Source: Escherichia coli (lineage in GTDB: Bacteria; Pseudomonadota; Gammaproteobacteria; Enterobacterales; Enterobacteriaceae). From it: 64,000 nt of DNA. Location: the NCBI RefSeq assembly GCF_030013595.1, contig NZ_CP122768.1; one strand, written 5' to 3'. A program made the position numbers and the translations under genes. Positions 44,396 through 44,474 of the stretch are shown piece after piece. Position 1 is the first letter of the stretch; every line of letters begins with the position of its first letter. The notes beneath the pieces are model-generated. The model was not told the origin of the DNA. It worked only from the letters and a program-made list of their open reading frames with translations, and did not search any database.

Positions 44396-44474
44396 AACCT
44401 CCCTACACCGGGGTACTGCATTTTTTTTTGTAGTACCCCGTATAATGTGAGGCTTTTAACAGGGAGAGGTCCGC

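Follow-up and report, generated by a model that had tools for sequence, protein, structure and literature searches.

Introduction

Overlap between the end of one transcription unit and the promoter of the next has a precedent in Escherichia coli, in which the frd terminator reportedly overlaps the ampC promoter-attenuator, an arrangement that is credited to Grundstrom and Jaurin in 1982. At intrinsic terminators the RNA is usually released 7-9 nt from the stem. Hairpins without a U-tract are said, after Dar and Sorek in 2018, to mark the trimmed ends of Rho-terminated RNAs. Among DNA operators, the lux box and the LexA box share the consensus CTG-N10-CAG. A junction that can be compared with all of these lies between elaB and menF. 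The product of menF stands at the first committed step of menaquinone (vitamin K2) synthesis, and little has been described of how E. coli regulates the gene. Within 70 bp, the junction unites a stress-induced transcript end, the men promoter, positions at which adaptive mutations raise men mRNA 3-7x and a block that is conserved across genera, and these linked observations bear on the insulation or coupling of menaquinone synthesis and elaB expression.

Organization of the elaB-menF junction

The window, which is the whole stretch of 64,000 nt of E. coli DNA that was analyzed, has the local gene order elaA-elaB-menF with all three genes on the + strand, and 5,421 of 5,426 complete E. coli genomes match the locus. 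Window coordinates were mapped onto MG1655 (NC_000913.3), where the locus is on the - strand. The features of the junction are as follows.

43574-44035, + strand: elaA, an annotated E. coli gene
44090-44395, + strand: elaB coding sequence, whose mRNA ends at the hairpin (open reading frame and E. coli annotation)
44393-44395, + strand: elaB stop codon (read from the sequence)
44397-44404, + strand: ACCTCCCT box, with its core CTCCCT at 44399-44404 (MFE pairing and conservation)
44409-44420, + strand: left (5') arm of the hairpin, CGGGGTACTGCA (sequence and RNAfold)
44421-44429, + strand: T9 run that forms the U8 loop, its last T pairing with A44420 (sequence and RNAfold)
44429-44440, + strand: right (3') arm of the hairpin, TGTAGTACCCCG, which abuts the -10 hexamer (sequence and RNAfold)
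44441-44446, + strand: TATAAT, the -10 hexamer of the menF promoter (sequence, published 5' and 3' ends, conserved to Yersinia)
44454, + strand: equivalent of the menF-menD transcription start (K-12 2380664; SMRT-Cappable-seq, mapped from K-12)
44461-44470, + strand: menF Shine-Dalgarno region, AGGGAGAGGT (sequence, fold and conservation)
44475-45770, + strand: menF coding sequence, with its GTG start at 44475 (open reading frame and annotation)

From the elaB stop codon the order is AACCTCCCTACAC-CGGGGTACTGCA-TTTTTTTT-TGTAGTACCCCG-TATAAT-GTGAGGCTTTTAAC-AGGGAGAGGT-CCGC-GTG. The hairpin starts 14 nt past the stop and TATAAT adjoins the stem, 29 nt ahead of the menF GTG, in agreement with the initial annotation, which had placed the hexamer at 44441-44446, about 30 bp before the GTG at 44475.

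The stem as predicted by RNAfold has 12 bp (C44409-A44420 with U44429-G44440), including one G44418.U44431 wobble, and closes a U8 loop. An 8-bp stem, GGGGTACT/AGTACCCC, had been proposed previously; this pairing is real and its right arm is correctly placed at 44432-44439, but its left arm is at 44410-44417 and not at 44411-44418, and the stem is longer than was described. The T9 run at 44421-44429 is inside the loop, as had been noted, although RNAfold pairs its last T. In the T9 form of the window the isolated hairpin has a predicted energy of -21.4 kcal/mol, and the fold of the 80-nt region has a z-score of -4.26, with 0/200 shuffles as stable; the stable G+C-rich stem-loop that is expected of an intrinsic terminator is therefore present. 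The arm pattern GGGTACT-N8-18-AGTACCC has one match in the window compared with 0.00 expected from shuffles, and 5,421 of 5,426 E. coli genomes carry it once.

Several other identities were tried. A dispersed repeat (REP/BIME/ERIC) was rejected due to the occurrence of the pattern at one place per genome at the median and its one match in the window, a bidirectional terminator was rejected since the fold of the minus strand lacks a U-tail and no gene is convergent, and a minus-strand ORF at 44387-44250, preceded by AGGGAGG, was rejected since the relation of the box to elaB is not fixed in other genera. An Rfam 15 covariance-model scan of the region gave only matches at chance level (E ~1). 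The NarL heptamer has the consensus TACYYMT, and the arms at 44409-44440 contain the NarL-heptamer-like sequences CGGGGTA and TACCCCG, everted and 17-18 bp apart. To our knowledge such an everted arrangement is not a described one; the heptamers are of possible interest because menaquinone serves nitrate respiration.

Within E. coli the length of the T-run varies. T8 is the species norm, found in K-12 and exact in 4,041 of 5,422 records, T9 is a rare +1 homopolymer allele with an exact 97-nt match in 10/5,422 records, and T10 occurs in none. The T9 records include the porcine strains UMNF18, K_EC180 and ETEC1748; the best 1.5-kb matches to the window are pig isolates too, and the window probably stems from that lineage. 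The K-12 sequence is not matched in 1,381 records (25%), two of which were sampled, and both of these, ECONIH1 and N12, carry A44432C (GTCGTACCCC), by which the U44417-A44432 pair is broken with no compensation. The upper stem is thus not strictly maintained within the species.

The elaB 3' end and the menF promoter

The 3' end of elaB RNA was mapped by Term-seq to NC_000913.3 2380674 (-), as a 'primary' end in 3/3 growth conditions and with high scores, including 54,112 and 221,851; no other 3' end at 23806xx is in the Term-seq listing, and supplementary file 2 of the same work has no Rho-termination region at 23802xx-23807xx (Adams 2021, PMC7815308). In SMRT-Cappable-seq the same position is the termination site (TTS) of the elaA-elaB transcript that starts at 2381565 (Yan 2018, PMC6131387). 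From this start there are 30 reads, of which 10 end at 2380674 and 16 pass it; read-through extends over a median of 199 nt, the 50 bp beyond the TTS contain no read ends, and an elaA-elaB-menF read-through transcription unit is listed (PMC6131387). The stop efficiency is therefore ~38% in the sole dataset that counts reads. In the window, 2380674 is A44444, the last A of GTATA in GTATAAT, which lies inside the TATAAT hexamer and 4 nt past the stem. The suggestion that the hairpin terminates elaB is thus supported by two independent K-12 datasets, both with the 3' end at 2380674, although the stop is leaky.

This end has unusual surroundings. A U-tract directly 3' of the stem is absent; the tail is UAUAAUGUG, with 4 U in the next 9 nt, and it has a tail score of 1.64 compared with 3.31 for the Buttiauxella terminator. 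The consensus promoter/terminator scan of the window did not call the main hairpin a terminator, and it called a weak 5-bp terminator-like hairpin at 44397-44414. At stem +4, the elaB 3' end is closer than the usual distance of intrinsic release, which fits trimming or processing. A literature search for partners of the elaB 3' UTR (ProQ, Hfq) found nothing. Taken together, the mapped ends support a leaky, non-canonical elaB terminator or 3'-end hairpin that is physically interleaved with the menF promoter, and we infer that the end arises by termination rather than processing. The junction is a clear example of a terminator that is missed by standard predictors for want of a U-tail.

For menF-menD and menF-menD-menH, a primary 5' end was found at 2380664 (SMRT-Cappable-seq, PMC6131387), which corresponds to window 44454, 8 nt past TATAAT, and leaves a leader of 21 nt. 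A perfect TATAAT -10 with a primary 5' end within 6-9 nt downstream is what a sigma-70 promoter should show. Neither a -35 hexamer at 16-18 bp nor an extended -10 TG is present (GCATTT and TGCATT match at no more than 2/6 positions, and CCG precedes TATAAT), and the consensus scan called no -35/-10 promoter pair at menF. The CGTATAAT sequence is kept from Escherichia to Yersinia. The start after TATAAT is not listed in the older set of Kim 2012, in which only 5' ends inside elaB were assigned to menF. These are U00096.2 2378779 and 2378830, inside the elaB ORF at window ~44323-44376; the upstream sequences printed for them contain no obvious -10, and they may be processing sites.

As the elaB 3' end is inside the menF -10 hexamer and 10 nt upstream of the menF start, the two features overlap physically, and the proposed overlap of the menF promoter with the hairpin is borne out. 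Across 44396-44475 the published K-12 maps show a 3' end near 44440 with the menF start just downstream; the opposite pattern, of read-through with no 3' end there and a start elsewhere, is not seen.

The CRP site has the consensus TGTGA-N6-TCACA, and TGTGAGGCTTTTAACA at window 44447-44462, whose centre falls on the mapped menF start, is CRP-site-like; the Enterobacter counterpart is shorter by one base.

Suppressor mutations in the left arm

When delta-entC E. coli was evolved, 3/3 independent lines gained G>A at menF(-58) or menF(-55) (PMC5892946). Mapped from K-12, menF(-58) is C44416 and menF(-55) is C44419, both in the left arm, and the changes are C>T on the menF strand. The menF log2 change was 0.21 in delta-entC with no mutation, 2.90 in sup1 (-58), 2.03 in sup2 (-55) and 2.36 in sup3 (-58), and the other men genes were raised too (log2 2.45 for menD, 1.85 for menH, 1.67 for menB and 1.87 for menE), so that menF is up 4-7.5x and the rest of the operon ~3-5.5x; elaB is absent from the changed-gene listing of the suppressor lines (PMC5892946). 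The left arm is thereby shown to act in cis as a negative element of the men operon.

Each suppressor turns a C-G pair into U.G, with predicted energies of -18.6 (-58) and -16.0 (-55) compared with -20.9 kcal/mol for the parent, and the mutations would act through a weaker stem. The -58 change, in addition, yields TTGCAT, a -35-like hexamer at 18 bp from TATAAT, and no improved -35 results from the -55 change; moreover, -58 has the larger effect on expression yet the smaller predicted destabilisation. Weaker termination, a better promoter and operator loss fit the suppressor data alike, which do not distinguish between them.

The junction in related genera

We compared 80 species-level loci and scored conservation on 48 distinct orthologous sequences from ~10 genera. 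The elaA-elaB-menF synteny and CGTATAAT are found throughout Enterobacteriaceae, with two designs of the junction. Buttiauxella, Cedecea and their relatives have a canonical hairpin plus T9 (CCCATTGGGTGGG-ATTTTTTTTT) after elaB, with TATAAT 15 nt on. In Escherichia, Salmonella, Citrobacter, Enterobacter, Lelliottia, Kosakonia, Trabulsiella and Silvania the T-rich run lies within GGGTACTG...CAGTACCC, with the right arm directly against the -10. The Citrobacter freundii group can form another structure, in which the CTCCC box and the left arm make an 8-bp hairpin (GTACTCCC/GGGGGTAC, ~-12 kcal/mol) followed by TGCTTTTTCT. This alternative hairpin matches the terminator consensus and cannot form together with the main hairpin, and since the T-run UGCUUUUU trails it, the T-run is a terminator tail there. 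The simplest view, then, is that the poly-T was not designed as a loop but may represent the U-tract of another terminator hairpin, either ancestral or alternative, and that the run may have turned into a loop when the sequence beside the -10 acquired complementarity to the left arm. In Yersinia CCCCGTATAAT is kept with no hairpin; the upstream ORF ends ~450 nt away and no gene abuts menF, which ties the hairpin to the elaB end and not to the promoter as such.

Among the 48 sequences the seven core stem pairs (GGGUACU/AGUACCC) are invariant, there is little or no variation in the box, the -10 and most of the leader, and the loop and the sequence from elaB to the box are not conserved. Peripheral stem pairs are often unpaired in orthologues. 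The rare arm changes keep wobble pairs on the + strand, with G.U in E. coli, two wobbles in one locus (L034) and U.G in another (L072). As the core shows no variation, covariation is evidence neither for nor against the RNA stem. One reading of this invariance is that the right arm may be frozen because CC(C/A)CG ahead of the -10 is kept even in loci that lack the hairpin, so that the left arm must follow; another is that the arms may form a DNA-binding palindrome.

A metagenome scan for the -10 plus leader, which was aimed at Klebsiella-type loci that lack elaB, gave 38 loci, and 35/35 with enough upstream sequence carry elaA-elaB and the hairpin; no locus of the Klebsiella type is among these 35. 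In the E. coli-Klebsiella ortholog table (PMC3415461, supplementary file 6), b2265 (menF) and b2267 (elaA) pair with adjacent KPN genes and b2266 has no entry; elaB appears to be absent in K. pneumoniae. Individual loci show other changes. In Enterobacter genomosp. O (L052, 1309-1430) a ~117-bp ERIC/IRU-like element (containing GAGAATCCCCAGGAGCTTACTCAAGTAAGTGACTGGGGTGAGCAGA) lies between the CTCCCT box and the hairpin, with hairpin, -10 and leader intact despite the insertion and the box displaced, and in Silvania confinis (L081, ~1415-1445) the box region is tandemly duplicated, with CTCCCTGCCAA present twice. A 'Parasutterella muris' contig (L024) encodes a MenF that is 69% identical to the E. 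coli protein, and a 318-bp 'Caballeronia mineralivorans' contig (L080) encodes a fragment that is 99% identical to E. coli MenF; both are likely contamination or transfer in those assemblies.

Discussion

The mechanism that best fits these data, to which we give a probability of about 0.62, is that the elaA-elaB transcript has its 3' end defined by the hairpin, which acts as a leaky, non-canonical intrinsic terminator that is built directly into the upstream half of the menF promoter. RNA polymerase leaving elaB would transcribe CGGGGUACUGCA-U8-UGUAGUACCCCG, which would fold into the 12-bp stem of ~-21 kcal/mol; the A/U-rich GUAUAAUGU that comes next would give a weak RNA:DNA hybrid, at which a fraction of the polymerases would be released, and the RNA end at stem +4 would probably be reached after a few nt of 3' trimming. 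In the shared DNA, TATAAT would start a separate, short-leadered menFDHBCE transcript 10 nt downstream, and the element would partly insulate menF from elaB transcription. With the terminator built into promoter DNA, a terminating polymerase would necessarily sit on the menF -10. This mechanism agrees with the hairpin structure, with the 3' end found in two datasets, with the lack of a listed Rho region and with the canonical terminator that Buttiauxella and Cedecea have at the equivalent spot; it also agrees with the weakening of the predicted stem by the suppressors and with Yersinia, where no gene abuts menF and there is no hairpin. Against it stand the missing U-tail, the 3' end at +4, the stop of only ~38%, the uncompensated A44432C and the set of Kim 2012, which has no such start. 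Moreover, with a stop of ~38% its abolition alone could not give 4-7x, unless elaB transcription greatly exceeds that from PmenF.

A second layer of control, which is compatible with termination at the hairpin, is possible at the level of translation, and we hold it only tentatively. In the read-through RNA the CUCCCU box would pair with the menF Shine-Dalgarno (SD) sequence AGGGAG, with the hairpin as a clamp, and only the short, box-less PmenF transcript would be well translated. CTCCCT is the exact complement of AGGGAG, and the MFE folds of the window and of most species pair the two around the hairpin; the box is also complementary to GGGG of the left arm. It is kept in most loci of the arm-enclosed T-run design, unlike the sequence that separates it from the elaB stop. 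The partners change together across genera, as CCCCTCCCTG/CAGGGAGGGG in Kosakonia, ACCCTCCCT/AGGGAGGGT in Salmonella, GAACCTCCC/GGGAGGTTC in Trabulsiella, in Silvania too, and as GACC/GGTC versus AACC/GGTT in the Enterobacter-Lelliottia group. Native box:SD duplexes have a mean of -15.07 compared with -13.90 +/- 0.19 kcal/mol for permuted pairs, with 0/20,000 permutations as low, in a test that ignores phylogeny. The column-wise covariation is small (0.081 vs 0.069), with clear double changes in one pair only. A predicted translation attenuation site is given here in RegulonDB, as cited in PMC5892946.

In 42/50 loci with this arrangement the SD is predicted to be less accessible in the read-through isoform than in the PmenF isoform, although accessibility tends to fall with RNA length in general, and Escherichia does not show this difference. 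For the E. coli window the modelled accessibility is 0.43-0.58 across all isoforms, suppressors and box destruction, with no effect of any of them, and E. albertii and Escherichia sp. L002 have a degenerate box. Such translational attenuation is a plausible second layer in other genera, and the case for it in E. coli is weak.

Another explanation of the same 3' end, which we consider rather unlikely, is that there is no termination at the hairpin: polymerase would enter menF, a Rho stop on the poorly translated read-through RNA or an RNase E cut in the A/U-rich GUAUAAUGUG would follow, and 3'-to-5' exonucleases would trim the RNA back to the protective stem. The missing U-tail and the position of the end just 4 nt off the stem point in this direction, as does the median of only 199 nt by which read-through RNAs extend into menF, and hairpins without a U-tract at trimmed Rho-terminated ends are reportedly a known class. 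Yet supplementary file 2 of Adams 2021 has no Rho-termination region at the locus, no reads end within the 50 bp past the TTS, and the sister clades have a canonical intrinsic terminator at the equivalent place, all of which count against this explanation.

At the level of DNA, it is improbable that GGGTACTG-N11-CAGTACCC is the operator of a dimeric regulator, lying over the menF -35 and spacer, with SdiA as a candidate regulator; the suppressors would then relieve repression by damage to one half-site or, in the case of -58, through a new -35. Arms and 11-bp spacing are conserved far beyond the need of an RNA stem and without compensatory changes, and both suppressors are within TACTGC, where -58 makes TTGCAT. 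The repeat is CTG-N11-CAG in Salmonella and Enterobacter, its right half is TAG or TCG in E. coli, and the window has CTG-N12-TAG. On a PmenFDHBCE reporter the effect of sdiA was +1.8 to 2.7x for Salmonella and -105x, independent of AHL, for E. cloacae, with E. coli unaffected (PMC11619404). These effects track the right half, CAG as against TAG/TCG, in a correlation across species that has n = 3 and is suggestive only, and the effects of SdiA may be indirect. The published SdiA box, AAAAG-N8-GAAAA, is absent from the junction sequence, and both a LexA box and a lux box were rejected for the spacing, which is N11/N12 and not N10, and for TAG in place of CAG. Further points against an operator are the arm changes, which keep wobble pairs on the + strand, and Yersinia, which has the promoter without the repeat.

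The least probable option is that the invariant palindrome is dual, ending elaB as RNA and serving as a menF operator (possibly of SdiA) as DNA, or that the released polymerase re-initiates at the menF -10 ten nt away; if true, the dual operator would explain the 105-fold sdiA-dependent repression in E. cloacae, and in either form there would be a mechanistic link, beyond mere adjacency, between elaB transcription and menaquinone synthesis.

Comparison with known systems

The pieces of this junction are already in public datasets and databases and are so far neither connected nor dissected. The invariance of the arms across genera, the adaptive mutations and the SdiA effect slightly raise the interest in it.

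Like canonical E. coli intrinsic terminators, the elaB hairpin is a G+C-rich stem-loop right after the stop codon, with the 3' end just downstream and no Rho region reported; unlike them, it has no 3' U-tract, carries its U-run in the loop, ends at +4 and is read through by at least half of the transcripts. With the frd/ampC overlap it reportedly shares an upstream terminator hairpin that is interleaved with the next promoter, and point mutations that raise the downstream gene several-fold under selection. The difference, again as reported, is that the ampC hairpin comes after the ampC start and attenuates the transcript of ampC itself, whereas the elaB hairpin is upstream of the -10 and absent from the PmenF transcript. 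The protective stem-loops attributed to Dar and Sorek are said to be likewise hairpins that lack a U-tail and have the 3' end a few nt past the stem, but no Rho-dependent region is reported at elaB-menF.

Operators of the LuxR family and of LexA resemble the junction in the CTG...CAG inverted repeat that overlaps a promoter, and the published SdiA regulons of Salmonella and E. cloacae include menF; in contrast to these operators, the menF repeat, a putative operator, is spaced by N11 (N12 in the window) and not N10, and its right half is TAG in E. coli. In B. subtilis sigma-B genes (PMC8208050) the ribosome-binding site is sequestered in a long read-through mRNA and freed by an internal promoter; a segment of the long isoform is likewise complementary to the SD, with the internal promoter between both. 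Compared with this isoform control, the menF case is predicted only, and weak or absent in E. coli. Set beside these systems, the junction is a fairly ordinary terminator-promoter overlap of a known kind, with some unusual details.
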